Positions 1 through 32,908 of a stretch of DNA of 64,000 nt are shown one piece after another; position 1 is the first letter of the stretch, and every line of letters begins with the position of its first letter. Position numbers and translations under genes: made by a program. The stretch is from assembly GCA_963705615.1 (NCBI GenBank), contig CAVPKE010000004.1, forward strand, positions 414,535 to 478,534. Reading direction: 5' to 3'. Source of the DNA: an uncultured beta proteobacterium (GTDB lineage: Bacteria; Pseudomonadota; Gammaproteobacteria; Burkholderiales; SHXO01). The notes beneath the pieces are model-generated. The model saw only the letters and a list, made by a program, of their open reading frames with translations. It was not told the origin of the DNA and made no database searches.

Positions 1-52
1 ACGTTCGGCGTCACAACGCGCCATAACGACCCGACCATTCATGGTGTAACGC

Positions 53-472
53 ATGAGAGCACAAGCACACGAGCGCTTCTCGTCGGAGGTCACACTCACT
101 CCCGCGATAGTTGCCGAGTACGCGCATGCCGTCGGCGATACTAATCCGATTCACCATGACCCCGAGGTCGCGGCATCAAGTCGCTATGGCCGTCTCATCG
201 CTAGCGGAACACACACGACCGCCCTTCTGCTTGGACTGACCGCATCACACTTCTCAAAGAAAGGATCGATGCTCGGTCTGGAGTTCTGGGTTCGCTTTCG
301 CCGACCCGTCTTCGCGGACGAGAGGATCAAACTGGAGTGGCTGGTGATAAAGGTTACCCCTAACGCGAAGCTCAAGGGTGACGTCGTTGAGCTTCGAGGT
401 CGCATAAAGGGCGAGAACGGAGAAACTGCCTTAGGTGCCAAGGGGCGTGTCTTAGTTACGGAGCGGCTTTAG
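53..472 (+). CDS. MaoC-like (R)-hydratase / hotdog-fold protein (cassette 4-583)
   Basis: 139-aa ORF with ATG start. Hotdog/MaoC pattern (AHAVGDTNPIHHDPEVA...GRLIASG). Confidence 0.85.
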   Translation: MRAQAHERFSSEVTLTPAIVAEYAHAVGDTNPIHHDPEVAASSRYGRLIASGTHTTALLLGLTASHFSKKGSMLGLEFWVRFRRPVFADERIKLEWLVIKVTPNAKLKGDVVELRGRIKGENGETALGAKGRVLVTERL

Positions 473-493
473 CCGCACCTGTAGACACATGAC

Positions 494-589
494 GCCGAAC
501 CAGGCAATCGAGGGGAGTGCTGAACAGCGTTGCTGTTCAGTACCCTCGTCGCTTCGCTCCTTGGCGCCACCTCATTGCCGGCGTTAGGC
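494..589 (+). mobile_element. attC site (96 bp)
   Basis: GCCGAAC-CAGGC-AATCGAG ... CTCATTG-CCGGC-GTTAGGC, with central palindrome TGAACAGC/GCTGTTCA and an unpaired C in the left arm. The inverse core complements GTTCGGC at 3-9. Confidence 0.85.
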
Positions 590-596
590 TTCTGCT

Positions 597-1361
597 TTGG
601 ACCCACTAGCTCAGCAAACACTCACAGTTCTTGAGAATGCGTTTCGGCGACTTGAGCAACAGGTGCCGCCGCCACGAATCGTGAGCATTGACGGTCAGAT
701 GGCGGTCCGTTACGAGGAACAACTAATCGAGCAAGCCCTCATTCAGAAGCTTGCGCGATACATCAGTTCTCTTGATGCAACCTACGTGCTTCTTCAGCAC
801 GGATTCTTGCAAGAGCAAGGAGTACTTCAAAGAACCCTTGATGAAATTAGCGAAGACATAACGTTCTTGGCTGTCGCAATAACTAACGATGCACCCACCG
901 ATCTCCACAAACGCTACCTCAGCGCATTTTGGTCCGAGGAATTTGCGGACAGCGCCAATCCAGTTGAATCACTGATCGATCGCGACATGGTTCCGCGAAA
1001 GAAGATACGGGCGTATGTTTCTAGAATCTTGGAACCTACCCCAAATCCTTCACGCGATCTCGCCGTATCAAAGACAATAAGCAAAGCCTATTCTGGATTC
1101 GTTCACAGTGCCTCTCCGCATCTTATGGAAATGTGCATTGGCGACCCGCCGAAGTTTCGTGTGCGTGGAATGCTGGAAACACCAAGAGTGGAGGATCATG
1201 ACTTCGACGTCTGGAATTATTTCTATCGTGGCCTCGTTAGCGCCACTATCGTCGCGAAGGCGTTTGGGGATGCTTCCCTGGTTAAAGCGCTGCTCGAATA
1301 TAGTTTCAAGTTTCAGCAGCAATGCGGGAGGGAGTTTGGTGCTAAGCCACCCGAAGCCTAA
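597..1361 (+). CDS. Hypothetical protein (cassette 584-1446)
   Basis: 254-aa ORF fills the cassette. Its TAA stop lies inside inverse core GCCTAAC. No family recognised; the TTG start is uncertain. Confidence 0.6.
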   Translation: MDPLAQQTLTVLENAFRRLEQQVPPPRIVSIDGQMAVRYEEQLIEQALIQKLARYISSLDATYVLLQHGFLQEQGVLQRTLDEISEDITFLAVAITNDAPTDLHKRYLSAFWSEEFADSANPVESLIDRDMVPRKKIRAYVSRILEPTPNPSRDLAVSKTISKAYSGFVHSASPHLMEMCIGDPPKFRVRGMLETPRVEDHDFDVWNYFYRGLVSATIVAKAFGDASLVKALLEYSFKFQQQCGREFGAKPPEA

Positions 1362-1452
1362 CCCTCAGTTCCAGGTGAGCGCCGAGCGGCGGCGCCGCTC
1401 GGTGACCCGTCGCGCTTCGCGCACCGGCGCCCCCTGAACTGCGACGTTAGGC
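1356..1452 (+). mobile_element. attC site (97 bp)
   Basis: GCCTAAC-CCTCA-GTTCCAG ... CCTGAAC-TGCGAC-GTTAGGC with a GC-rich central palindrome. The inverse core complements GTTAGGC at 583-589. Confidence 0.85.
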
Positions 1453-1460
1453 GGCTTGAA

Positions 1461-1934
1461 ATGGGCGCTCTTGCGATCATCAAAGGATGGTGGAGGAACA
1501 CCAAGGACCTACCCTTTCCATTAGACATGCTTTGCCAGGGCGCAATGATCGCAGGGCCCATTCTGTTTGTGTTCCTGGTGCTACCGATCGTCGACTGGAC
1601 AATCAACGGTCGTCAAATGTCGTACGCTGAACTTTGGAAGTCGGGTGCTGGTCTTGCATTCGGACTATTTCTTTTCCTAATCATGATCGGCGCTTGGGGT
1701 TTGGCGGCGCGCAATCTCAGGAGCCGCTGGGCGCTCGTCGCTGCGCCAATCGCACCATACATCGCATCGGTACCATTCCTTAACTCCGGGCTGCTTTCGA
1801 CAGAAGACCTTTGGTTTGGCATCCTCGGCGGCTTGTTGATGGCCGCAATCACGTACGCATGCCTATTTCACGTACCTGCCGTTCGTCGCTATTTCGCTGG
1901 TGGCCCGGATGCTCATGACCGTCAATCCGCCTAA
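1461..1934 (+). CDS. Hypothetical multi-pass membrane protein (cassette 1447-2012)
   Basis: 157-aa ORF with ATG start and several hydrophobic segments. The stop lies inside inverse core GCCTAAC. Confidence 0.6.
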   Translation: MGALAIIKGWWRNTKDLPFPLDMLCQGAMIAGPILFVFLVLPIVDWTINGRQMSYAELWKSGAGLAFGLFLFLIMIGAWGLAARNLRSRWALVAAPIAPYIASVPFLNSGLLSTEDLWFGILGGLLMAAITYACLFHVPAVRRYFAGGPDAHDRQSA

Positions 1935-2018
1935 CAGCACGCCCCACCCGGACGCGCACGCGAGCGCCGCGCTGTGCCAGCGTTGGTGGGCGCGCGCCGG
2001 TGGGCGTGGACGTTGGGC
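1929..2018 (+). mobile_element. attC site (90 bp)
   Basis: GCCTAAC-AGCAC-GCCCCAC ... GTGGGC-GTGGAC-GTTGGGC. The flank CAATCCGCCTAAC matches the reverse complement of cassette start GTTAGGCGGCTTG at 12 of 13 positions. Confidence 0.85.
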
Positions 2019-2041
2019 GTACACTCCTCACAGGGAGATCA

Positions 2042-2662
2042 ATGCCGACCAATGATCAATTCAGCGAGGAAGTCGTCAGTCTTGCGGATGAGGAATTGAT
2101 TGACCGCTTGCGCTCAGGGAATCTGACGGAGGTGGCTGCAGACATCGTTCGTCAAGAACTCGCCGCGAGGGATATAGATGTAGCGAGTGCGCTGGCTCAG
2201 CCCGCTCAAGGCGCCCCTCCGCCTCTCCGCATTTCTGTCGCTACCCGAGGAAGATTCGTTGCTTTCTTGGGGCGTGCTTCGCGGTTTCCACTGCGGGCCG
2301 TCTTGGGCGCCGAACCGCTTTGGGCGGTCATCGTGTTCGGGGGAATACTTTTCTTTCTCCTGTTCAAGTTGATCGTGTACGGTCTCACGCAGTTGCTGGC
2401 CGTAAGGCCTATGCCGCCGTATGCACTTCCGCTCGCTTACGCTGCAATGGCTCTCATCGCGCTGGCGATGACTTGGTTTGCATTGGCGCTCTGGCGCAGC
2501 GCGAGGCGAGCGAAATCTTCTTTTTGGAAAATTGCAGTCCGCGTACTTGCGGTGCTAGTTGCGCTGAATGCTGTGTTCGGAACTCTGGGTGGAATGCGTG
2601 TAATGCAAAAGTATTTCAATTCCCCTCCGGCGAGCGTTATGGATTCCATTCCAAAACAGTGA
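2042..2662 (+). CDS. Hypothetical membrane protein with soluble N-terminal domain
   Basis: I took the ATG at 2042 as the start because the track start at 2000 lies inside attC. The C-terminal half is hydrophobic. Confidence 0.6.
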   Translation: MPTNDQFSEEVVSLADEELIDRLRSGNLTEVAADIVRQELAARDIDVASALAQPAQGAPPPLRISVATRGRFVAFLGRASRFPLRAVLGAEPLWAVIVFGGILFFLLFKLIVYGLTQLLAVRPMPPYALPLAYAAMALIALAMTWFALALWRSARRAKSSFWKIAVRVLAVLVALNAVFGTLGGMRVMQKYFNSPPASVMDSIPKQ

Positions 2663-2698
2663 AGGATCAGTGCTTTTGGCAGTAGTGGTACGTTGGGC
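2651..2698 (+). mobile_element. Atypical short attC-like element / extra core-site copy
   Basis: CCAAAAC ... GGTAC-GTTGGGC, only 48 bp. The core plus spacer resemble those at 2012 and 5000, but the left arm is poor. Confidence 0.35.
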
Positions 2699-2944
2699 AT
2701 CACGGATGTCTGTGAGCGCGGTGGAGACAGCCCAGGCTCTAAGGCTCGTACACTGATCGCCCGACGGAGTAGACTAGTTAGCGCGCCGCGATACAAGAAG
2801 GGATAGGGAATCAGCTGTTCGGCTGCTCCTACGCTGTACCTTTGGGCCGCAGGCCCGCTCTTTCGGTACCTACCTGTACCACTCTGCAAGCCAGTCAACG
2901 ACTCGTGCGCTGCACGCACTGACTGCCGTGCGCAGTTCATTTCT

Positions 2945-3415
2945 ATGGGGGAAGCCATGAAGCGATCGATTGTTGCGCTGCTCGCTTTGACTATTGGGGG
3001 ATTCGGTGGTGGGGTCTGGGCAGGACCCGCGGAGGAAGTTGCCCAGATCGCCACGCCGAGGTTGCAGGCCCTACAAGACGGAAACCTGGATGCGTATATG
3101 GCTGCGTTCGCCGATAACGCCGTGTTCCAGTCCGCGCTGTCGGCATTCCGCGTCGAGGGCAAGGAGGCAATACGAGCACATTTCACGGAATTGTTTGGTA
3201 TATACCCAAAGCGTCGCGTCCTGCCCCGGCAGTCGACCACGCGCGTGTACAACGATGATTTGGTGATTACGAACAGCTATTCGGTCCTCTACTTGACCAA
3301 CCAACAGGGGCAGGTGGTGACCTACCCGCTGCGAAGTAGCGTGGTTTGGGCAAAGATCGGAGGACGGTGGCAGATCGTCGATCAGCACGGCTCGCGGCTA
3401 CCGGTCGCACCGTAG
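2945..3415 (+). CDS. NTF2-like (SnoaL/DUF4440-type) protein with signal peptide
   Basis: 156-aa ORF. Signal-like N-terminus MKRSIVALLALTIGG..WA. NTF2-like pattern ending WAKIGGRWQIVDQH. Confidence 0.75.
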   Translation: MGEAMKRSIVALLALTIGGFGGGVWAGPAEEVAQIATPRLQALQDGNLDAYMAAFADNAVFQSALSAFRVEGKEAIRAHFTELFGIYPKRRVLPRQSTTRVYNDDLVITNSYSVLYLTNQQGQVVTYPLRSSVVWAKIGGRWQIVDQHGSRLPVAP

Positions 3416-3459
3416 GCCGACTCGGCACTCGGCGCTGTACCTCAGCCCGAACGCGTGCC

Positions 3460-3491
3460 GCCCAACAACCAGTTCCACCGGGGCGTTAGGT
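3460..3491 (+). mobile_element. Truncated attC (inverse core and core only 32 bp apart)
   Basis: GCCCAAC at 3460 complements the GTTGGGC cores at 2012 and 2692. GTTAGGT at 3485 opens the next cassette. The internal arms appear deleted. Confidence 0.4.
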
Positions 3492-3536
3492 GGCCCACCG
3501 CTGGGCCGTCCCACTGACCAAGCAGCGAGGAATGTA

Positions 3537-4184
3537 GTGTCGAAACTCCGCGTCCAAAGCTTCGCGATTTCCATCGACGGCTACGGTGCTGGGCCGAACC
3601 AAGATCTCCAGAATCCGCTCGGCGTCAGGGGCCCTGAGTTGATGGAGTGGTTCTTCCACACACGCGTATGGCGGAGGATGCACGGCCATGACGATGGAGA
3701 GACGGGAGTCGATAACGGAATTGCGGAGCAAGGCTTTGCCGGAATCGGTGCCTGGATTCTTGGGCGCAACATGTTCGGTCCTGTCCGAGGCCCGTGGCCG
3801 GACGACAGCTGGAAGGGCTGGTGGGGCGACGAGCCGCCGTATCACACGCCCGTCTTCGTGCTGACGCATCACCCGCGGGCGCCGCTTAGGATGGCGGGAG
3901 GTACGGAGTTTCGCTTTGTCACCGAAGGCATTCACGCCGCTTTGGAGCAGGCGACCGCTGCAGCGGGCGGCCGCGACGTCCGCCTCGGTGGCGGCGTATC
4001 CACTATTCGGCAGTATCTGCGCGCCGCCCTGATTGACGAGCTGCATCTCGCCATCCGACCTGTCTTACTCGGTTCCGGGGAGCATCTCTTGAACGACATC
4101 GATATGCGTGCTTTGGGCTATGAATGCGCGAAGTACGTCGCGGGCGAACGTGCGACCCACGTCTTTCTGCGCAAGCGCGCGTGA
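3537..4184 (+). CDS. RibD C-terminal domain / dihydrofolate-reductase-like family protein (cassette 3486-4293)
   Basis: 215-aa ORF with GTG start. Family pattern FAISIDGYGAGPNQ ... WILGRNMF ... VFVLTHH ... LGGG.STIRQYL. Confidence 0.8.
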   Translation: MSKLRVQSFAISIDGYGAGPNQDLQNPLGVRGPELMEWFFHTRVWRRMHGHDDGETGVDNGIAEQGFAGIGAWILGRNMFGPVRGPWPDDSWKGWWGDEPPYHTPVFVLTHHPRAPLRMAGGTEFRFVTEGIHAALEQATAAAGGRDVRLGGGVSTIRQYLRAALIDELHLAIRPVLLGSGEHLLNDIDMRALGYECAKYVAGERATHVFLRKRA

Positions 4185-4208
4185 CCCGTCCGGCTCGCTC
4201 GGTGGGCC

Positions 4209-4299
4209 ACCTAACCCCTCAATGCAGCGGACGGGCCGCAAGCGCCTCGCCTATTCGAGCGCTGTGCGGCCGGCCCGCCGCAGATTTCCGACGTTAGAC
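4209..4299 (+). mobile_element. attC site (91 bp)
   Basis: ACCTAAC ... CCGAC-GTTAGAC. GGTGGGCCACCTAAC (4201-4215) is the exact reverse complement of cassette start GTTAGGTGGCCCACC (3485-3499). Confidence 0.8.
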
Positions 4300-4337
4300 G
4301 GCTCGCCCGGCATTGCTCCGTGCAGTAGGCTCTACAC

Positions 4338-4934
4338 ATGAACCATCCATTGCGGTGCCAGTGCGGCACTTTGAGAGGCTACGTCAGCCACCCCGAGCGA
4401 GTGAACCGGGGCGTCTGCTACTGCAAAGACTGTCAAGCCTATGCGCACTTTCTAGGCAAAGCTGGTGACATTTTGGACGAGATGGGAGGAACGGACGTCG
4501 TCGCAACCCTTCCCAAGTACCTCACCTTCACCCAAGGATTGGAGGCCCTCGCTTGCATGTCCCTCACAGAAAATGGACTTCTGCGTTGGTATGCGAGTTG
4601 CTGCAACACTCCGATTGGCAACACCCGGCGCGATTTCAGGATCTCTTTTGTTGGCCTCGTTCACACCTGCCTGGAAGATCCATCGATCACCTTAGAAAGT
4701 TCTTTCGGCCCCGTCCGCATGCGGGTCAATACAAAGAACGCCAAGGGCAGGCCAAAGTCAATGCCGATAAGCACAATCGCAGCGGTTCTTCGGTTCATGA
4801 AATCACTGATCCGCGCGCGCCTGGATAACAGCTACAAGTGCACGCCGTTCTTTGCTCCGGATCGGGGAACCCCTGTTGTACCACCAAAGGTGCTCACCCG
4901 TAGCGAGCGAGATCGAGTGATGAATGCCGTCTAA
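4338..4934 (+). CDS. Cys-rich GFA/CENP-V-like (DUF6151-type) protein (cassette 4294-5000)
   Basis: 198-aa ORF with ATG start. Paired Cys motifs CQC...CYCKDC...CCNTPIG are typical of zinc-binding GFA-fold proteins. Confidence 0.6.
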   Translation: MNHPLRCQCGTLRGYVSHPERVNRGVCYCKDCQAYAHFLGKAGDILDEMGGTDVVATLPKYLTFTQGLEALACMSLTENGLLRWYASCCNTPIGNTRRDFRISFVGLVHTCLEDPSITLESSFGPVRMRVNTKNAKGRPKSMPISTIAAVLRFMKSLIRARLDNSYKCTPFFAPDRGTPVVPPKVLTRSERDRVMNAV

Positions 4935-5006
4935 CCCCTCCGTCGAGGCGAGGCCCAACGGCGGGCTTCGTCCACCGTCGGCCCCGCCTCACGTCGAACG
5001 TTGGGC
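4929..5006 (+). mobile_element. attC site (78 bp)
   Basis: GTCTAAC-CCCTC-CGTCGAG ... CTCACG-TCGAAC-GTTGGGC. The inverse core complements GTTAGAC at 4293, and the TAA stop lies inside the inverse core. Confidence 0.85.
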
Positions 5007-5042
5007 ATCGGGAACACAATTCGCCTATCGGAGCCATCGAAC

Positions 5043-5393
5043 GTGAATGCCATCAACCTTGCAGAGAAGCTCGCCACCTTCGCCGAGCACTGGCAGCCAA
5101 GAACCGTCGGCCAGTTCAACAAGCACGACCTCATGGTGGTCAAGGTCAAGGGTGAGTTCGTCTGGCACAAACATGACGACACTGATGATTTCTTCCTCGT
5201 GCTTAAGGGTCGGGTCACAATCCGGATGCGAGACCGAAACATCACCCTTGGTCCGGGCGAACTGTTCGTGGTGCCCAAGGGCGTAGAGCATTGTCCTGTC
5301 GCAGAGGAAGAGGCGCACTTGCTTCTGATCGAGCCAACAGGGACGCCAAATACCGGCAACACTGAAACCGCTGCTCCTCGACGTGTGATCTAG
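5043..5393 (+). CDS. Cupin-domain protein (last recognisable cassette, starts 5001)
   Basis: Cupin motifs GEFVWHKHDDTDDFF.VL.G and PKGVEHCP. GTG 5043 is preferred because the track start at 5001 lies in the attC core. Confidence 0.8.
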   Translation: MNAINLAEKLATFAEHWQPRTVGQFNKHDLMVVKVKGEFVWHKHDDTDDFFLVLKGRVTIRMRDRNITLGPGELFVVPKGVEHCPVAEEEAHLLLIEPTGTPNTGNTETAAPRRVI

Positions 5394-5397
5394 GACG

Positions 5398-5452
5398 ATG
5401 GCAACCACGACGCCGAACCCCACACTCGACTGGAGCGCTGAGGCGCTGCCAA
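5398..5452 (+). mobile_element. Half attC (left arm only) marking end or disruption of the array
   Basis: GATGGCAAC is a degraded complement of GTTGGGCATC at 5000. The left-arm motif ACGCCGAACC matches 492-501, and there is a central palindrome AGCGC-TGAG-GCGCT. No right arm or GTTRRRY core follows. Confidence 0.35.
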
Positions 5453-5512
5453 CCTGGTACTTGTATGTCCTGCGCTCGCTCACCTGGGTCGCGGGGTGAG
5501 CACTCGGACTCG

Positions 5513-6856
5513 ATGCGCCGTTTTCTCTTTGCAACTGCCGGCTCCCTGGGTGATCTACATCCATACATCGCCGTGGCTCGCGCGCTGGTCGAGCGCGGGC
5601 ATCGTGCGGTGATTGCTACGGCCGAGGACTATCGCCCCGATGTAGAGGGTGCCGGGATCGAGTTTGCGCCAGTGCGTCCCAGCTTGTCCGAAATGGGCGA
5701 CTACGAGGCGCTGCTGACGAAGCTTTTCGATGTTCGTCGCGGGCCGGAATACCTCGTGCGCGAATTGATCATGTCCAATTTGCGACCCGGTTACGAAGAT
5801 CTTCTGCAGGCCTCGGATGGCGCCGATTTGCTGATCTCTCATCCGTTGGCCGTGACGCTGCCATTGATTGCGCAGCGCCGTGCGTTGCCTTGGGTCGCCA
5901 GCGTGCTCACCCCAATGAGCTTCATGTCCTCCTACGATCCGCCACTTCTCGGTGTTGCGCCGTGGTTGCGAAAGCTGCGCGCCCTGGGGCCGGAGCCATA
6001 CCGGCTCGTGTTCAACATGTTCAAGCGTAGCGTGCGGGGATGGGAGGCGCCGCTGCGCGAGTTGCGCAAAGACCTCGGACTCCCGCCGTCGACGCGGATG
6101 GCAATGTTCGAAGGACAGTTTTCCCCGCTCCGCAATCTCGCGCTATTCGATCCGCACCTGGCCAAAGCGCAGCCAGACTGGCCGCGACATGTGCGCGTCT
6201 GTGGGGCCCCTGTCTATGATGGGGCGATGCCGGAGGGGGACATCGATAAGGAGCTGGGGGAGTTCCTGGCCGAGGGTGAAGCCCCCATCGTGTTCGCGCT
6301 CGGCTCCTCGGCGGTATGGGTGGCGGGAGATTTTTGGGACAAAGCTGTTGCAGCGGCGCGGCGATTGGGACGACGGGCTGTCCTGGTGACCGGTCCCGTG
6401 ACCGTCAAGAACTTGCCCAGAGAGGTGCGGGCGTTCCCTTACGTTCCCTACTCCAGGGTATTCCCACGTGCCGCAGCAGTCGTACACCAGGCCGGTATCG
6501 GCACACTCGCTCAGGCGATGCGTGCCGGCCGTCCGCAGCTGCTTGTGCCAGTGTCCTTCGACCAGCCAGACAATGCGCGGCGAGCGTCGGCCCTCGGTCT
6601 GGCACGCGCAATTCCATTCAAGAAGGCGACTGCTAGACTGCTTGCGTCCGAGCTCGCAGCCTTGCTCGCGCGACCCGAGTATGCTCACAACGCTGAGGAA
6701 GTCGCCCGAGCCTTGGCAAAAATTGACGGCGCTGCGCAGGCTGCAGATGAGCTGATCGCATGCGCTTATTCTGAGGGCGCCGCTGGCGAGCTGCGCACCT
6801 TTGCTTCGCATGCTAACGGGAAAGGTTATGGGGCTGACCACAGCACGTTTCCTTAG
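5513..6856 (+). CDS. GT1-family UDP-glycosyltransferase (MGT / sterol- or rhamnolipid-type)
   Basis: N-terminus MRRFLFATAGSLGDLHPYIAVARAL..RGH. C-terminal donor-binding region HQAGIGTLAQAMRAGRPQLLVPVSFDQPDNA. Confidence 0.85.
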   Translation: MRRFLFATAGSLGDLHPYIAVARALVERGHRAVIATAEDYRPDVEGAGIEFAPVRPSLSEMGDYEALLTKLFDVRRGPEYLVRELIMSNLRPGYEDLLQASDGADLLISHPLAVTLPLIAQRRALPWVASVLTPMSFMSSYDPPLLGVAPWLRKLRALGPEPYRLVFNMFKRSVRGWEAPLRELRKDLGLPPSTRMAMFEGQFSPLRNLALFDPHLAKAQPDWPRHVRVCGAPVYDGAMPEGDIDKELGEFLAEGEAPIVFALGSSAVWVAGDFWDKAVAAARRLGRRAVLVTGPVTVKNLPREVRAFPYVPYSRVFPRAAAVVHQAGIGTLAQAMRAGRPQLLVPVSFDQPDNARRASALGLARAIPFKKATARLLASELAALLARPEYAHNAEEVARALAKIDGAAQAADELIACAYSEGAAGELRTFASHANGKGYGADHSTFP

Positions 6857-7405: not shown

Positions 7406-7539
7406 CATCGGCGTGAACCTGACCGCCTAACAGCAGTTGCTCGGCGAACTGGTCCAGCGCAAAGTCGATGTAATCGTGGTGGAGACTACGCCTCCAACCC
7501 AGGCGGTTGGTCAGCAGGATTGAAGCAAGAAAGGGCGCG

Positions 7540-8241
7540 ATGAATCGAACTATCTCCGGCGAAGGGGTAACGACGCTGCCGTCGGGCAAAGTGCCCGAGC
7601 GACGACCGATCGAAGGCAGCCGCGTCATATTGGAGCCGCTAGAGCCCGAGAACCACGCCGAGCTGCTTTACGCGGTATCACACGAGACGGCCGAAGCCAA
7701 AGAGATCTGGAACTTCCTCCCCGATGGTCCCTTCAAAGACCCGGCCAGCTTCAAGGCATGGGCTAGCGCCATGACTGTTGACGCCGACCGCGCCGTATTC
7801 GCGTTCCGCGACAAGGTCACCGACCGCGTTGCGGGAATGGCAACCTACCTGGACATTCGTCCAAGTCACGGCTCTATCGAGATGGGCTACATCTGGTTCG
7901 CGCCATTCTTGCAGCGTACGCCCCAATCGACAGAGGCGCTGTTCCTGATGCTGCGCTATGCGTTCGACGAACTTCAATATCGCCGGATGCAGTGGCGGTG
8001 CAACGCGCTGAATAAGAAGTCCCGGGCTACTGCCCTTAGGCTCGGCTTCACTTTCGAGGGCGTCTTCTACCAACACATGGTCGTAAAGGGTCACAACCGA
8101 GACACCGCTTGGTACTCGATCCTTGATAGCGAGTGGCCGCGCATCCGCGGGAACTTCGAAGCTTGGCTCGCCCCTAGCAACTTTGACGCACAGGGACGCC
8201 AGAGGCAATCGCTAAGGGCGTTGAATGAAAATGCAGCCTAA
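7540..8241 (+). CDS. GNAT N-acetyltransferase (RimJ/RimL-like)
   Basis: Pattern L.PL.P.NH..L...... then a GNAT core ending RLGFTFEGVFYQHMVVKGHNRDTAWYSILD. I took the ATG at 7540. Confidence 0.8.
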   Translation: MNRTISGEGVTTLPSGKVPERRPIEGSRVILEPLEPENHAELLYAVSHETAEAKEIWNFLPDGPFKDPASFKAWASAMTVDADRAVFAFRDKVTDRVAGMATYLDIRPSHGSIEMGYIWFAPFLQRTPQSTEALFLMLRYAFDELQYRRMQWRCNALNKKSRATALRLGFTFEGVFYQHMVVKGHNRDTAWYSILDSEWPRIRGNFEAWLAPSNFDAQGRQRQSLRALNENAA

Positions 8242-8931: not shown

Positions 8932-9460
8932 ATGTCCATCAGCCACCGCACGGCCCGCAGAAGCGATCTACCGCAGATTGTCGAGATCTATAACTCGACG
9001 ATCCCAACGCGAATGGTGACCGCGGATACCGAGCCGGTCACAGTGGAGAGCCGTACTCGGTGGTTTGAGGAGCATACGCCGACTTTCCGCCCCCTCTGGG
9101 TCATTGAGAGCGAAGGCAGGATCGCCGCGTGGCTGAGCTTCTCTTCGTTCTACGGGCGCCCCGCGTACAACAAGACCGCGGAGCTGAGCGTCTACGTTCA
9201 CGAATCGTTTCGACGGCGAGGCCTGGGCACCTACCTTCTGACACAGGCCGTTGCTCAAGCGCCAGCGCTCGAAGGTGAATACGCTCCTAGGGTTCATCTT
9301 CGGGCACAATGAACCGAGCCTGCGTCTGTTTAGAAGACTTGGCTTTACTCGCTGGGGTGAGTTGCCGCAGGTTGCCGCACTGGATGGTGTCGAACGGGAT
9401 CTCGTCATCGTAGGTCGACGCGTGAAGGACGCCCAACCCAGCAACGCATCGGGCCCGTGA
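8932..9460 (+). CDS. Phosphinothricin-acetyltransferase-like GNAT, one frame break near 9275
   Basis: The N-terminal part (8932-9312) and C-terminal part (9251-9460) together give a PAT-like sequence: IVEIYN..I....T.....V....WF ... [19 protein letters not shown]. Confidence 0.75.
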
Positions 9461-9665
9461 TTGTGTGCGTTGAGCGTCATGAGGAAGCTTTCCTCGCCGT
9501 ACGCAACTGCTGGAACGCCGCTCGCCGAACACTATTGATTGCACCGAGGGGAACTTGAGCACCCACGTCATCTCGTTCGTCATCCTCGCGCTCCAGTGAG
9601 AGGAACAGAGCGACGGTGCAGATCCGTCTGCGCACTCCTTATCGACTGGACCCTCGAGAGGTGCC

Positions 9666-10602
9666 ATGACTCACAAACATACCGGCGTCGTCATCGCCAT
9701 GGCCTTGCTAATGATGGCGCCGCTCGTGACGGAGGCGCAGCAAGCGGCGAAGGTCGCCCGCATCGGTATCCTGCGCATCGGTTGCCGCCCGATCCCTTCG
9801 ACGAGGCGTTCCAGCAAGGCCTGCACGAGCTCGGTTACACAGAGGGGCGAAACATCAGCATCGAGTACCGCTGGGCCGAGGGACGACCCGAACGGCTCCC
9901 AACTCTCGCCGCCGAACTGGTCCGCCTCAAGGTAGACATTATCGTCGCGGGCGGCCCAGCGGTCGAGGCGGCGCGGCAAGCCACGCCTACAATTCCCATC
10001 GTCATGGCGGTCTTAAGCGATCTGTGAGGCTCGGCCTCGCGGCGAGCCTCGCCCGGCCAGGCGGAAACGTCACCGGGTTGACGATCCTAAGTGAAGAGTT
10101 GCCCGGCAAGTGGATGGAACTCCTGAAAGAAACCCTCCCCAGAGTCTCTCGCGTGGCTGTCCTCTCGGATCCTCAGTACACCGCAGACCAAGTGAGAGTT
10201 TCGGAGGCAGCGGCTCGATCTCTAGGGGTGCGCCTTCAAGTGCTGAACGTGAGCCGCCCGGACGAGTTCGAGACCGCGTTTGCCGAGGCAAAGAAGAATC
10301 GCGCTCAAGCCCTCATCGTCTTGTCGTCAGCATTGTTCTATGTGTACAGAGCCGACCTCGTAGCACTTGCGGCGAAACAGCGGCTACCGACGATCTACCA
10401 CCAGAAGGAGTTCGTCGTGGGTTCGGGTGGCCTCATGTCGTATGGGCCAGACTTCCATGACCTATTCCGGCGCGCCGCCGGCTACGTGGACAAGATCCTG
10501 AAAGGCGCGCAGCCCGGCGACCTCCCCATCGAGCAGCCGACGAAGTTCGAGCTGGTCAGTCAACCTCAGGACGGCGAAGGCGCTCGGACTGACGATCCCT
10601 GA
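9666..10602 (+). pseudogene. Decayed PF04392-type ABC substrate-binding protein (paralog of 11624-12622)
   Basis: Pieces in three frames align along the intact paralog. Frame breaks near 9770 and 10555, plus an in-frame TGA at 10025. Confidence 0.75.
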
Positions 10603-10672
10603 GCCGGTGCTGCATGCGGGCGGATCGAGGTGATCCGATGAAGCACAATCATTGATCACCCAAAGTTGCCAA

Positions 10673-11200
10673 ATGATCAAAGAAGTCGAATTCCCGTCGG
10701 AAGGTGCGACGCTTCGAGGATTGCTCTTTCTGCCGGAGACGCAGTCGAAGAAACTGCCGCTCGTGATCATGGCGCACGGAACGTCCGCAACGATCTACAT
10801 GGTTGCCGACAAGTACGCCGAGGTGTTCTGTCGCGCAGGCCTGGCAGTCCTGCTCTACGATCACCGCAACTTCGGAAGAAGCGGGGGTGAGCCGCGCCAG
10901 CAGATCAATCCGTGGATCCAGTGTCGGGGTTACCGGGATGCCATCGATTTCGCCGAACAGCTGGACGAGGTCGACCGCGACCGGATCGCACTATGGGGCG
11001 ATAGCTACGCAGGCGGGCAGGTCATCGTCGTTGGCGCGATTGACCCGCGAGTCAAGGCCATCGTAGCCCAGTGTCCTGTGTGCGGAGCGGAGCCGCCGGC
11101 GGTGGAGCCAAACGCGCGCCTGACCAGGACGTGCGCATCGAGTTGGGATACGATCGACTCGCGGATTGATCGTGCCCTCTCATCGAGATCGAGGAGCTGA
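10673..11200 (+). pseudogene. Alpha/beta hydrolase (dienelactone-hydrolase-like), C-terminally truncated
   Basis: The nucleophile elbow GDSYAG is present, but the Asp/His region is missing and the last ~30 aa look out of frame. The next gene starts at 11203. Confidence 0.55.
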
Positions 11201-11202
11201 CG

Positions 11203-11595
11203 ATGAATGAACGCCTCGAACGCAACAAGAAGGCCGTGGTGGCCTTCTACGATCTGATGTTCAACGAATGCCGGCCCGCAGAGGCGATCGCGAAGTACGC
11301 TGGTGAGGTGTATGTCCAGCACAACCCCCATGTGGCCGACGGCAAGGAGGCATTCATAGCGTACTTCGAAAAGATGGCCAACGAGTATCCCGGCAAACGC
11401 GTGCACTTCAAGAGAGTCTTTGCGGAAGGCAACTTCGTCATCCTGCATTGCCACCAGGTATGGCCCACCTACAAGGACAAGGATTGGGCAGGCATCGACA
11501 TCTTTCGACTCGACGACAACGGCAAGATCGTCGAGCACTGGGATGTGCTGCAGGTCGTGCCCCAAGCCTCGGCCAATGCCAATACGATGTTCTAA
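11203..11595 (+). CDS. SnoaL-like / NTF2-family protein
   Basis: 130-aa intact ORF. Pattern [14 protein letters not shown] ... YVQHNP ... [11 protein letters not shown]. Confidence 0.85.
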
Positions 11596-11623
11596 GGAGG
11601 GGTTGTGGTGTTGAGGAGATGCG

Positions 11624-12622
11624 ATGATGCGACGCTGGGTTGCGATTGTGCTCCACGCCGCGGCACTGTCATGGATGATCGGCGGCGATGGTCAGGCGGG
11701 GGCAGCCGACACAACTGGAAAGATCGCACGAATTGCCTTCGTGTCACCAAGCCCCGCTTCCGCCTTCGCGAGGAGTGTCGCGGTGTTCCGCGATCGCCTC
11801 GGGGAGCTGGGTTGGGTTGAAGGTCAGAATCTCGTCCTCGATCAATACTGGGGAGAGGGACATCTCGAGCGGCTCCCAGAGCTCATGGCTCAGGCGCTGG
11901 CCCGCAATCCGGACGTTCTGGTGACAGCGAGCACGCCGGGCGCTCTCGCGGCCAAGAAAGCGACCAGCACCGTCCCAATCGTGGTCGCCTCGATGGGCGA
12001 TCCGGTGCAGACGGGTGTGGTGTCGAACCTGGCTAGACCCGGAGGGAACCTCACTGCGCTCTCCACGGGCTACGTCGACGGCTTCGCGGGAAAGTGGCTC
12101 GAGCTGCTCCTTGAGGCGGTGCCGCAGGCAACCAAAGTGGCGGTAATCTGGAACCTGGGCAATCCGGTCACACGCGGCCAGGGTATCGACCTGGAAAAAG
12201 TCGCCGCGGCGCGCGGTGTGAGGTTACGGTTCATCGACGTGCGTGAACCGCGCAAGCTGGAGTCCGCCTTCCAGCAGGCGAAGCATGCTGCCCAGGCATC
12301 CGTGGTCATCTGCGAAAACCTGTTCATCGAGAACGGGCAGCAGGTCGTCGACCTCGCCGCCAAGTACCGGCTGCCAACCGTGTACTGCTTGTCGGGATTC
12401 GCCCGGGCAGGAGGCCTGATGGCCTATGGGACGGATCTGCAGGCGATGCACCGGCGCGCTGCGGAGTACGTCGACAAGGTCCTACGAGGCGCCAAAGTCG
12501 GCGATCTACCGGTAGAACAACCGACCAAGTTCGAGCTGGTGGTCAACCTCCGAACTGCGAAGGCGCTGGGAATAGCCATTCCGGAATCGATCTTGTTGCG
12601 TGCCGATGAGATCATTCGATGA
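11624..12622 (+). CDS. PF04392-type ABC transporter substrate-binding protein (orphan)
   Basis: 332-aa intact ORF with a signal peptide. Family pattern ...LARPGGNLT... LPVEQPTKFELVVNLRTAKALGI.IP.S.L.RADE.I. Confidence 0.85.
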   Translation: MMRRWVAIVLHAAALSWMIGGDGQAGAADTTGKIARIAFVSPSPASAFARSVAVFRDRLGELGWVEGQNLVLDQYWGEGHLERLPELMAQALARNPDVLVTASTPGALAAKKATSTVPIVVASMGDPVQTGVVSNLARPGGNLTALSTGYVDGFAGKWLELLLEAVPQATKVAVIWNLGNPVTRGQGIDLEKVAAARGVRLRFIDVREPRKLESAFQQAKHAAQASVVICENLFIENGQQVVDLAAKYRLPTVYCLSGFARAGGLMAYGTDLQAMHRRAAEYVDKVLRGAKVGDLPVEQPTKFELVVNLRTAKALGIAIPESILLRADEIIR

Positions 12623-28322: not shown

Positions 28323-30586
28323 ATGCAATTCCTACAAGCGTTTCCCATCGCCATCATCGACGAGGACTACGAAGGCAAGCACGCCGCCGGGCGCGGCATG
28401 CGGCAGCTCGCAGCTGCGATCGAGAAGGAAGGATTTCGTGTGGTGGCCGGTCTCAGCTACGAAGACGCGCGGCGGCTGGTCAACGTCTTCAACAGCGAAT
28501 CGTGCTGGCTGGTCTCGGTGGACGGCGCGGAGGCCACCCCGAAGCAATGGCAGATCCTGGAGGAGGTGCTGGCCGCCAAGCGCAGCCGCAACGACCGGCT
28601 GCCGATCTTCCTGTTCGGCGACGAGCGCACGGCGGAAATGGTTCCGGCAAGCGTGCTCAAGCACGCGAACGCCTTCATGCGCCTGTTCGAGGACTCGGCC
28701 GAGTTCCTGGCCCGCGCGATCGCCCGCTCGGCGCAGCTCTACCTCGAGCGCCTGCCGCCGCCGATGTTCAAGGCGCTCATGGACTACACGCTGCACGCCA
28801 GCTACTCCTGGCACACGCCCGGTCACGGCGGCGGAACGGCGTTCCGCAAGAGCCCGGTGGGCCAGCTGTTCTACGAGTTCTTCGGCGAGAACACGTTGCG
28901 CTCCGACATTTCGGTGTCGGTGGGCCAGCTCGGCTCGCTGCTCGACCACACGGGGCCGATCGCCGAAGGCGAGCGCAACGCGGCGCGGATCTTCGGCGCG
29001 GACGAGACCCTGTTCGTGGTCGGCGGCACTTCGACCTCGAACAAGATCGTCTGGCACGGCACCGTTTCCCGCGGCGACCTCGTGCTGTGCGACCGCAACT
29101 GCCACAAATCGATCCTGCACTCGCTGGTCATGACCGGGGCCACGCCGATCTACCTCGTCCCCTCGCGCAACGGTCTGGGCATCATCGGACCGATCTCGCG
29201 GGAGCAGTTCACGCCCGAGTCGATTCGGCGAAAGATCGCCGCCAGCCCGTTCGCGAAGGAGACGAGCGGCAAGGTGCGTCTGATGGTGATGACCAACTCC
29301 ACCTACGACGGCCTGTGCTACAACGTCGACGCCATCAAGCAGACGCTCGGCGACGCGGTGGACGTGCTGCACTTCGACGAGGCCTGGTACGCCTACGCCA
29401 ATTTCCACGAGTTCTACGACGGCTATCACGCCATCTCGTCCGAGCGCCCGGCGCGCTCGCCGCACGCCATCACCTTCGCCACGCAGTCCACGCACAAGCT
29501 CCTGGCCGCGCTGTCGCAGGCGTCCATGATCCACGTTCAGCACGGCGAGACGCAGCGGCTGGACATGGCGCGCTTCAACGAGGCGTTCATGATGCACACC
29601 TCGACCTCGCCGCAGTACGGCATCATCGCGTCCTGCGACGTCGCCGCCGCCATGATGGAGCAGCCGGCCGGCCGGGCGCTGGTGCAGGAGACGATCGACG
29701 AGGCGCTGAGCTTCCGCCGCGCCATGACCGCGGTGAAAAAGCAGCTGAACGGCTCGTGGTGGTTCGACGTCTGGCAGCCCGACGCGATGGCCAAGCGGCC
29801 GACCGATGAGCAGTCCGCCTGGGTGCTGAAACCCGGCGACCGGTGGCACGGGTTCGAAGAGCCTGGCCGAGAACCACGTGCTGGTCGACCCGATCAAGGT
29901 CACCATCCTCACGCCCGGGTCTGTCTGCCGACGGCAACATGCAGGAGCACGGCATCCCCGCCGCCGTGGTCACGCGGTTCCTGTCCGCCCGCCGCATCGA
30001 GATCGAGAAGACCGGCCTGTACTCCTTCCTGGTGCTGTTCTCGATGGGCATCACCAAGGGCAAGTGGAGCACGCTCGTCACCGAGCTCATCAACTTCAAG
30101 GATCTGTACGACGCCAACGCGCCGCTCAAGCGCGTGCTGCCGGCATTGGCGGAGGCGCATCCGGACGCCTACGCGAAGATGGGACTCAAGGATCTCTGCG
30201 AGCAGATGCACCGGACCTACCGCGAGGACAATCTGCCCAAAGCGCAGAAGGACATGTACACCACGCTGCCCGAGATGGCGATGCGGCCGGCCGATGCTTA
30301 CGAATGCCTCGTGCGCGGGCGCGTGGAGAGCGTGGAGATCGACAACCTGATGGGCCGCACGCTGGGGGTGATGGTGGTGCCCTACCCGCCCGGCATTCCC
30401 GTGATCATGCCGGGCGAGCGCATCACGCCGGCGACCAAGTCGATTCAAGACTACCTGCTGTACGCGCGCGAGTTCGACCGGAAGTTCCCCGGCTTCGAGA
30501 CCGACATCCACGGGCTGCGCTTCGAGCCGACCGCCGGCGGCAGGCGCTATCTGGTGGACTGCATCACACAAGGAGCCGATCGATGA
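28323..30586 (+). CDS. ldcA: Orn/Lys/Arg decarboxylase, LdcA-type (wing domain + PLP fold I), frame breaks near 29865 and 29918
   Basis: Near-colinear with the remembered P. aeruginosa LdcA: YSWHTPGHGGG.A.RKSPVGQ.F..FFGENTLRSD.SVSV..LGSLLDHTGP, DRNCHKSILHS, STHK, LYSFLVLFSMGITKGKWSTLVTEL. Substrate not assignable from sequence alone. Confidence 0.9.
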
Positions 30587-32908
30587 TCCCACGCTCGGTC
30601 AAGTCGCCCACCATCCCGATCCCGTTCCACAAGCTGCTCAAGGTGGTCGCGATCGTCGATAGCGCCAACCCGCAGACCAAGCAGCTTCTCGACCACATCG
30701 CCGCGGAGAACTTCAAGGTCGAGGTGACCGACCGCTTCGAGCGCGACGTCTCCGAGGACGCCGCGGTCGGCGCGTACATCGCGTTGATCGACGGTGAGCG
30801 CCTCGAGCAAGCGCGCAAGATGGCGCTAGCGGTTCGCGCCATCGGCTTTCGCACGCCGCTCTGGGCGCTCGCGGACTCGCACCGCATCTCCGACATCGCC
30901 GTCGTCGGCGGGCTCGGCGAAGTGGACGGCTACATCTACCTCGGCCAGCAGACGCCCGCCTTCTATGCGAAGCAGGTCGTGGCGAGCCTCGTCAAGTATG
31001 GGAGAGAGCTGCTGCCGCCGTTCTTCGGCGGGCTCATGGCCTACGACGGCGAGGCCAACGTGGCGTTCGATTGCCCGGGCCACCAGGGCGGTCAGTTCTA
31101 CCGCAAGTCGCCGGCGGGTCAGCTCTTCTTCAAGCATTTCGGCGAGAGCGTGTTTCGCAACGACCTGTGCAACGCCGACGTGGACTTGGGCGATCTGCTC
31201 ATCCACGAAGGCCCCGCCGCGGAAGCGCAGCGCTACGCCGCAAAGGTGTTCGGCGCCGACAAGACCTATTTCGTCCTGAACGGCACGAGCACCTCCAACA
31301 AGGTGGTCACGAACGCGGTGCTGCGGCGCGGGGACCTGGTCCTCTTCGACCGCAACAACCACAAGTCCCTCCACCAGGGTGCCCTGGTAGGAGGCCGGCG
31401 CGATCCCGATCTTCCTGCCGACCTCACGCAATCCCTTCGGCATGATCGGTGCCGTCGACTGGGACGCCTGGGACGAAAAATATCTCCGGGAGCAGATACG
31501 GGCCAACCCGCTGGTGAAGGACCCGCAGCGGCACAAAGCCGAGCGCCCGTTCCGCCTCGCGTGCATCCAGCTCGCGACCTACGACGGCACGATCTACAAC
31601 GTCCGCAAGGTCCTGGAGAAGATCGGGCACCTGTGCGACTACGTGCTCTGGGACGAGGCGTGGATCGGCTACAACGCCTTCCATCCGCTGTTCGAGGACC
31701 ACAGCCCGATGCGGCTGGAGAAGCTGGCACCGGAGATGCCCGGGCTGTTCTCGACGCAATCCGTCCACAAGCAGGGCGCCGGTTTCTCGCAGGCTTCCCA
31801 GATCCACAAGCGCGACGAGCATATCCGCGGCCAGCGGCGCTTCATCGAGCACAAGCGCTTCAACGAGTCGTTCCTGATGCACGCGTCCACGTCGCCCTTT
31901 TATCCGCTGTTCGCCTCTCTGGACGTGAACGCCAAGGTTCACGAGGGCAAGGCCGGTGAGATGCTGTGGGACCGGTGCATCGAGCTGGGCATCGAGGCCC
32001 GCAAGAAGATCCGCGAGTTCTGCCGCTACTTCGCGCGCACCGGGCAGAGCGACCAGGAGAAATGGTTCTTCGATCCGTTCGTGCCCGATGTGGTGACGAT
32101 CCGGGGCTCGAAGTTCACCGCGGATGCGACTGACCTTCCCTGGGAGGACCTCCCCACGGAGGTGATCAAGCGCGAGCAGCAGTGCTGGAACTTCCATCCC
32201 AACAGCCGCTGGCACGGGTACTCTGGCTACGCCGACGGCTACGCGATGGTGGACCCCAACAAGCTCACGCTGCTCACACCAGGAATCGAGCGCAAGACCG
32301 GCGAGTACCTCGACTTCGGGGTGCCCGCCACGGTGGTCGCCAATTACCTGCGCGAGCAGCGCGTAGTCCCGGAGAAGTGCGATCTCAACAGCATCCTGTT
32401 CCTGATGACGCCGGCGGAGGACGAGAGCAAGCTCAACACGCTGATCGCGAAGCTCGTCAAGTTCAAGAATCTCTGGGATCGCGACGCACCGCTGCCCGAG
32501 GTCCTGCCAACCCTGTATGCGGCGCACAGCGAGCGCTACGCGGGCTACACGCTGCGCCAGGTCTGCAACGAGATGCACGACTTCTATCGCAAGGCGAACG
32601 TCAAGGATCTGCAGCGGCGCTGCTTCCGGGCGGCGAGCTTCCCGGAGCTCGCGATGTCACCTAAGGACGCCTACGAGGCCCTGGTCGCGAACGATGTCGA
32701 CTACGTGCCTCTGGAGAGCATCAAGGGTCGCATCTCCGCCACTCTCGCATTGATCTACCCGCCCGGCATCGGTGTCGTGGTCCCCGGCGAGCGCTGGGAC
32801 GAGCGCGCGCAGCCGATGCTCGACTACTTCCTGGCCTTTCAGGAGTCGTTCAACCGCTTCCCGGGCTTCAACTACGAGGTCCAGGGCGTGTTCCAGGAAC
32901 GCGAGTAG
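30583..32908 (+). CDS. speF: Ornithine decarboxylase, SpeF/SpeC type, frame break near 31392
   Basis: AFDCPGHQGG.F, ADKTYFVLNGTS.SNKVV, LFDRNNHKS, RPFRLA.IQL.TYDGTIYN, KIGHLCDY, TQSVHKQ.AGFSQ.SQIHK, FGVPATVVANYLRE..VVPEKCDLNSILFL.TPAED. ATGA overlap with ldcA. Confidence 0.9.

Follow-up and report, generated by a model that had tools for sequence, protein, structure and literature searches.

With a probability of about 0.93, the first 5,450 nucleotides of the 64-kb stretch of DNA analyzed here (hereafter, the window) belong to the distal part of a chromosomal array of integron gene cassettes in an uncultured member of the Burkholderiales. Three lines of observation carry this assignment: the structure of the recombination (attC) sites, the logic of the cassette junctions, and the recurrence of the MaoC cassette in other arrays and, in one case, beside an integrase gene, intI. 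The array is a new example of a well-known system, and there is nothing new in the recombination system itself. The host is a soil bacterium of the order Burkholderiales and the contig is chromosomal; the backbone proteins of the 484-kb source contig cluster at ≥90% with proteins of Variovorax and Burkholderiaceae, and the DNA to the right of the array carries ordinary metabolic genes. The G+C content is 58% in positions 1–5452 vs 64% across the rest of the window, and all plausible open reading frames (ORFs) of this segment are on the + strand, co-oriented with the attC sites. Cassette clusters are delineated by same-strand attC sites with gaps of less than 4 kb (PMC4889954); here, the five intact sites lie within 4.5 kb of one strand, with the largest gap of 2.2 kb, each located 3' of a co-oriented ORF.

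The five sites had been proposed in a first-pass annotation made from the sequence alone, and re-reading of positions 1–6600 found all of them, and every motif quoted there but one (see below), at the coordinates given. They are listed below with the scores of two covariance models, R2 (trained on class 1 integron sites only) and R3 (trained on class 1 sites plus local sites), and the z-scores of the bottom-strand folds.

494..589, + strand: attC site 1, 96 bp, canonical register; R2 9.7 bits, R3 44.6 bits (this site belongs to the R3 training set); fold z = -3.4
1356..1452, + strand: attC site 2, 97 bp; R2 16.7 bits, rank 4 in the window; fold z = -4.9
1929..2018, + strand: attC site 3, 90 bp, 78% G+C; R2 17.5 bits, rank 3; fold z = -0.6
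4209..4299, + strand: attC site, 91 bp, with a bulged G at position 16 and a bulged A at position 23; R2 20.0 bits, top in the window; fold z = -4.4
4929..5006, + strand: attC site, 78 bp; R2 18.2 bits, rank 2; fold z = -2.7

All five share one register, which consists of the inverse core R'' (7 nt), a 5-nt spacer, L'' (3+1+3), a variable centre, L' (3+3), a 6-nt spacer and the core R' (7 nt); the same register is found in two sites (636–731 and 1243–1320) of a 12-kb sister contig, L001, that is 97.7–99.8% identical to the window. The lengths (78–97 bp), the 5-nt spacer and the single unpaired base in the left arm described previously were thus seen in every site. The base bulged from the left arm at position 16 is C in four sites (G in the bottom strand) and G in the site at 4209 (C in the bottom strand); the extrahelical G16, together with the L''/L' box and the unpaired central spacer, is among the defining features of attC (PMC5027507). 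The AAC and GTT triplets are present in all five sites, and the degenerate consensus fits R' in five and R'' in four. The inverse core had been given as RYYYAAC throughout, which holds for four of the five sites; GCCGAAC (494) departs from it at position 4, and because this departure is mirrored in GTTCGGC at 3–9, the two form a compensatory pair. As reported for attC sites (PMC5027507), the top strand has a negative GC skew, which holds for both sites of L001 and for four of the five in the window.

The sites were further evaluated with the independent model R2, which was built from eight class 1 attC sites only (estX, psp, aadA2, cmlA1, aadA1, qacL, dfrA1, gcu; plasmids NZ_CP020493.1 and CP080283.1) after N had been put in place of the variable centre, such that the model learns the length of the centre and not its sequence. 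Full-length MAFFT alignment misaligned the attC boxes, and the masking gave the correct alignment. In a search of both strands of the entire window with filters off, the top four matches were the sites at 4209–4299, 4929–5006, 1929–2018 and 1356–1452 (16.7–20.0 bits, E = 0.02–0.13), all on the + strand and with ends identical to those first assigned; the fifth site scored 9.7 bits, and the next match anywhere reached 13.4 bits. Given that the array block accounts for 4% of the search space, the probability of four chance matches all falling inside it is ~3e-6. The refuting outcome that the first-pass annotation had named for the attC sites, a lack of model matches at the listed coordinates, thus did not occur. 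No Rfam family reached the gathering threshold in the window. An earlier model, R1 (44 positions, centre removed), was unable to span 78–97 nt, so its zero matches to the sites are technical and not evidence. A hand-written attC scanner was dropped: in the strict form, it recovered three of the five sites along with two false ones and, in the loose form, produced 1–2 matches per 10 kb per strand everywhere.

Folding of the bottom strands as single-stranded DNA, another check suggested previously, was supportive in part. Four of the five sites beat dinucleotide shuffles (z = -2.7 to -4.9) but the one at 1929 did not; the bottom strand is more stable than the top one in three of the five.

The junctions follow the logic expected of cassettes. 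The seven cassettes, preceded by the remnant of one more site, are:

1..9, + strand: last bases, with R' (GTTCGGC, 3–9), of the attC that closes the preceding cassette; the window edge truncates this site, which is present whole in L001
4..583, + strand: cassette 1, MaoC-like hotdog dehydratase, ORF 53–472 (Pfam PF01575, E = 1e-18); GTTCGGC/GCCGAAC 7/7
584..1446, + strand: cassette 2, 254-aa protein without a family, ORF 597 or 637 to 1361; TAA stop inside R''; start vs R'' 7/7
1447..2012, + strand: cassette 3, 157-aa hydrophobic protein, ORF 1461–1934; stop inside R''
2013..3485, + strand: composite cassette, membrane protein ORF 2042–2662 and secreted SnoaL/SgcJ-like ORF 2945 or 2957 to 3415
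3486..4293, + strand: cassette with a RibD_C-type reductase, ORF 3537–4184 (Pfam PF01872, E = 1e-16)
4294..5000, + strand: cassette with a DUF6151/GFA-like Cys-rich protein, ORF 4338–4934 (Pfam PF19648, E = 4e-29); start vs R'' 7/7; stop inside R''
5001..5450, + strand: last cassette, cupin, ORF 5043–5393 (Pfam PF07883), with a truncated attC

Over the seven cassettes, 48 of the 49 opening bases (seven per cassette) are complementary to the cassette's own inverse core (7/7 in six, 6/7 in the last one). When starts were permuted against ends, only 8 of the 5040 arrangements reached the observed total (P = 0.0016), and those eight merely swap identical motifs; the claim that each cassette opens with the reverse complement of the inverse core that closes it accordingly holds up better than for shuffled junctions. 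The complementarity extends to 12 of 13 positions in cassette 3 (the end, CAATCCGCCTAAC, starts at 1923, one base to the right of the previously assigned 1922) and to 15 of 15 for 3485–3499 vs 4201–4215; the composite cassette opens with GTTGGGC (2012), which complements GCCCAAC (3460) at all seven positions. Within one site, R'' and R' match less well (34 of 42 positions, 5–7 of 7 per site), as a crossover at G/TT would predict, given that R' would then contribute its last six bases to the cassette that follows. The start/end pair also covaries across genomes: it is GTTCGGC/GCCGAAC in the window and GTTAGGC/GCCTAAC in L116, a metagenome contig described below.

Searches of Pfam and NCBIfam bore out the cargo list: MaoC, three proteins without a family, SnoaL/SgcJ-like, RibD_C, DUF6151 (with a weak GFA match) and cupin. 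The cassette 2 protein yielded nothing above the cut-off in Pfam, NCBIfam or PADLOC, and PADLOC identified no known defense protein among the cassette proteins.

Scans with the MaoC protein retrieved 160 loci from many phyla, and the DNA homology of other genomes to the window ends at the edges of single cassettes. In 163 other loci, model R3 produced 78 matches, 75 of these on the MaoC strand, and attC directly flanks MaoC in 16 of the 168 MaoC-bearing loci (a tally from R3 that includes the window and L001). The sister contig L001 adds two cassettes to the left of the window and holds the entire preceding attC at 1243–1320 (R3, 57.2 bits). The contig L116 encompasses intI (55–70% identical to IntI1, on the opposite strand), the junction GTTAGGCGTCA, MaoC and an attC (28.3 bits), with the same boundary of the MaoC cassette as in L001 and the window; L116 is a complete integron, and MaoC is its first cassette. 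In another locus, L131, a C-terminal fragment of intI is followed by MaoC (92% identical) and five attC sites. The intI fragments in L131 (9222–9353) and L092 (2835–2927), 75% and 68% identical to IntI1 residues ~287–330, respectively, lie on the cassette strand, 0.65–2.3 kb upstream of MaoC cassettes, and look like integrase remnants in an unusual orientation. A homologue of the RibD_C reductase is present in L013, placed differently relative to MaoC.

The closest MaoC relatives (94%) come from one locus, L164 8646–13104 (ENA ERZ27256612 k141_1732967; the same locus as L002 and L086–L088). Here, small genes (GNAT, metallo-beta-lactamase fold, MaoC, glyoxalases, GFA, GNAT) follow one another in a single orientation between opuAC and alaS-recX-recA; the run is cassette-like but has no detectable attC. 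This locus may be a fully domesticated former array.

Each unit of the array consists of a promoterless + strand ORF followed by attC. By the established integron mechanism, the single-stranded bottom strand of attC would fold into a hairpin that comprises an R box, a spacer left unpaired, a variable loop and an L box with an extrahelical base; attC x attC recombination would free a circular cassette, and recombination of the circle with attI would reinsert it beside a promoter. Expression would then be driven from the upstream cassette promoter Pc, and the integrase would be encoded to the left; an intI gene, if any, is expected there, outside the window, because of the orientation of the array. 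No excess of sigma-70-like promoters was detected in the array. Four units (584–1446, 1447–2012, 2013–4293 with its three ORFs together, and 4294–5000) look excisable in the sequence since each stands between two intact sites inside the window, whereas excision of the MaoC unit (4–583) needs the upstream site that is cut by the window edge.

The array is partly decayed; besides the five intact recombination sites, it has two broken ones:

3460..3491, + strand: internally deleted attC, with R'' GCCCAAC, spacer AACCA, L'' GTTCCAC, then the spacer CGGGGC and R' GTTAGGT, and without the variable terminal structure (VTS) and L'
5411..5432, + strand: truncated last attC, with R'' GCCGAAC, spacer CCCAC and L'' ACTCGAC plus a small hairpin; no L' or R' follows

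The first of these scores 12 bits with R2 and 15.7 bits with R3 (E = 0.075), the best R3 match in the window outside the training set. The second one produced neither a model match nor a fold signal (z = +0.5), and just beyond it, the right end of the array abuts a GT1 glycosyltransferase gene. No attC was found between the ORF ending at 2662 and the ORF starting at 2945 (R2 and R3, filters off), and GTTGGGC at 2692 has no partner. Because 3460–3491 lacks the VTS and L' and there is no attC between these two ORFs, 2013–4293 is probably one locked three-gene unit, and because the last site lacks its 3' half, the cupin cassette probably cannot be cut out on its right side; the junctions at 3460–3491 and at the last site are, by the same reading of the sequence, probably frozen. 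L001 lacks window positions 474–1477 and, with them, attC sites 1 and 2, cassette 2 and the initial 31 nt of cassette 3. The deletion junction (L001 1784 vs window 473/1478) reads ..GCTTTAGC|ATCAAAGG.. and does not fall at G/TT; it reflects either an ordinary deletion or a collapse in assembly and not the action of an integrase.

Several observations weigh against the assignment to an integron array. A tblastn search with IntI1, in which the plasmid positive controls were found, detected no intI in the 64-kb window or in L001. The independent model scored the site at 494–589 weakly (9.7 bits), and the 78% G+C site at 1929–2018 folds no better than shuffled sequence (z = -0.6). The mean pairwise identity among the attC sites is 0.62, unlike the homogeneous arrays of large sedentary integrons. 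Finally, two of the seven sites are defective and L001 carries a 1-kb deletion away from G/TT, which points to decay rather than active shuffling. The label "chromosomal integron" given in the first-pass annotation is only half borne out: the contig is chromosomal but no integrase is seen in the window or L001.

The strongest alternative, to which we assign somewhat less than even odds, is that this is an orphan array, that is, an attC-site cluster without an integron integrase (CALIN) or the dead tail of a former integron, with no integrase nearby, eroding by ordinary deletions while its genes become fixed. Such a fate would fit the lack of intI in the 58 kb to the right, the two deleted or truncated sites of seven, the imprecise 1-kb deletion in L001, the small + strand genes at 6.8–9.5 kb (two GNATs and two unknowns) with their weak attC-like remnants, and the occurrence of the closest MaoC relatives in a similar run of small genes without attC beside alaS-recX-recA; besides, CALINs and complete integrons occur at similar frequencies (PMC4889954). 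Against it, the five sites are structurally intact, and L001 contains at least two more intact cassettes leftward, so that an integrase may be encoded at a greater distance to the left or at another place in the genome; moreover, even an orphan array can be mobilized in trans (PMC4889954). By the IntegronFinder definitions (PMC4889954), the visible part is an attC cluster without an integrase. The window resembles CALINs in having two or more same-strand attC sites with gaps of <4 kb, no visible intI and non-clinical cassettes; it differs in that the window cuts the array, so the absence of intI holds only for the visible part. We lean towards a poorly maintained array, in view of its defective sites, the heterogeneity among the sites and the imprecise L001 deletion.

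A second alternative, that the palindromes are generic intergenic repeats (akin to repetitive extragenic palindromes or bacterial interspersed mosaic elements, REP/BIME) or terminators that resemble attC by chance, accommodates the terminator-like placement of G+C-rich imperfect hairpins 3' of stop codons and the one hairpin that is no more stable than shuffled sequence, but is highly improbable and effectively refuted by the lack of T runs after the hairpins, the mere ~62% similarity among the elements, the matches to a model of clinical attC sites with exact ends on one strand only, the start/end complementarity of each cassette, which would be meaningless for terminators, and the homologous cassette beside intI.

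Coming back to the cassette array, we asked how far it extends to the right. Beyond 5452, there was no model match above noise, and the density of R-box motifs at 5.4–12.7 kb is only slightly above the background. Nevertheless, the segment at 6.8–9.5 kb contains small + strand genes, namely, 85-aa and 115-aa unknowns, a GNAT (7541–8241), a 156–172-aa unknown and a frameshifted GNAT (8932–9459), and one of these GNATs is a neighbor of MaoC in other genomes. Motifs resembling R'' are found in or beside the stops (CCCTAAC 7399, GCCTAAC 7425, GCCTAAG 8235, GCCGACC ~8846 and GCCCAAC 9431), and GTT motifs come before the next gene. Two weak candidate sites can be discerned:

7425..7512, + strand: possible eroded attC (weak), after the 115-aa ORF; R3 7.4 bits, E = 0.71 (4.3-kb search); 7/9 L-box pairs by hand
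9431..9475, + strand: possible deleted attC (weak), at the end of the frameshifted GNAT gene; R3 13.2 bits, E = 0.022 (4.3-kb search) or 0.33 (whole window)

An eroded continuation of the array at 6.8–9.5 kb is thus possible.

Farther to the right, pseudogene candidates were noted at 9539–10602 and 10652–11200, with additional ones at 28323–32908; an ABC_sub_bind gene is interrupted by a stop and has an intact paralogue at 11624–12622. Two other genes are apparent pseudogenes as well: that of an alpha/beta hydrolase is truncated, and that of an Orn/Lys/Arg decarboxylase takes the form of two overlapping fragments. Between L001 and the window, there is a difference of ~1.4 kb at 10158–11614.

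The only unusual item of the array is a leader in the 282-nt spacer between the two ORFs of the composite cassette (2013–3485):

2756..2922, + strand: conserved ~150-nt noncoding leader; matched by nhmmer in six other lineages (E = 1e-16 to 1e-53)

The leader is 79% identical to sequences of other Burkholderiales. In the neighborhoods of GYD-domain genes from six further lineages of this order, it is located 55–180 nt upstream of the GYD gene (L017 8139–8303, L100 3876–4039, L185 2292–2443, L179 2184–2353, L175 2292–2444 and L182 2316–2438) and, in some of these, heads an operon GYD-(catalase)-MaoC-DUF488; in the window, it precedes the SnoaL-like cassette ORF instead. The predicted fold, drawn as a closing helix with four hairpins, is compatible with pairing in 94.9% of the cells, with double changes at only two pairs, i.e., weak covariation, and includes long invariant single-stranded stretches (UAGACU, CUCUUUC and UGCAAGC). 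There was no match to Rfam or to viral contigs. Since all reading frames are interrupted by indels, the possibility that the element encodes a protein was rejected. The evidence is suggestive of a regulatory RNA or a protein-binding leader, which this element may be. A more specific possibility, which we regard as doubtful, is that it is an undescribed structured cis-regulatory RNA of Burkholderiales that normally heads leader-GYD-(catalase)-MaoC-DUF488 and was captured here in an integron cassette before a different gene.

The sites of the window have the register of the attC sites of class 1 mobile integrons (aadA1, aadA2, cmlA1), including the bulge at position 16 and the AAC/GTT triplets; the aadA1 attC sequence was confirmed in 2515 plasmids and read in two annotated class 1 integrons. 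The site at L001 1243–1320 even has the L boxes and stem base of attC cmlA1, of a clinical cassette: GCTGCAGCCGACC...CTGAGCTCA..CGTTA. The sites of the window exceed class 1 sites in length (78–97 vs 60–70 bp), and their spacers are rich in C instead of A; they are located on the chromosome, with a cargo other than antibiotic resistance. Sedentary chromosomal integrons (the Vibrio superintegron, and the arrays of Xanthomonas and betaproteobacteria) share with the window the location on a chromosome, numerous small cassettes that point the same way and mostly have unknown or accessory functions, and G+C below that of the backbone. In contrast to large sedentary arrays, in which the repeats are >80% alike, the attC sites of the window are heterogeneous (0.62) and there are signs of decay, and no integrase is observed in the window.

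Integrons are common in Burkholderiales, and because gene callers do not mark attC sites, such arrays go unannotated in metagenome-assembled genomes. Marking this one explains a low-G+C block of small genes and defines the genes that are movable as units. Only the decay features and the leader go beyond routine annotation. The value added is modest and consists of clear-cut cases of attC decay (one internal deletion in which R'' with L'' and R' are retained, and one 3' truncation at the array end), a MaoC cassette gene with and without attC in close relatives, and a conserved noncoding leader inside a cassette. If the leader is indeed such an RNA, captured from the GYD operon, then, together with the MaoC cassette, it would provide attC-bearing and attC-free versions of pieces of one operon, at 79–86% identity. 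For the unsolved problem of how cassettes originate, it would amount to a rare before-and-after comparison; it would also be a case of a cassette with its own regulatory RNA.

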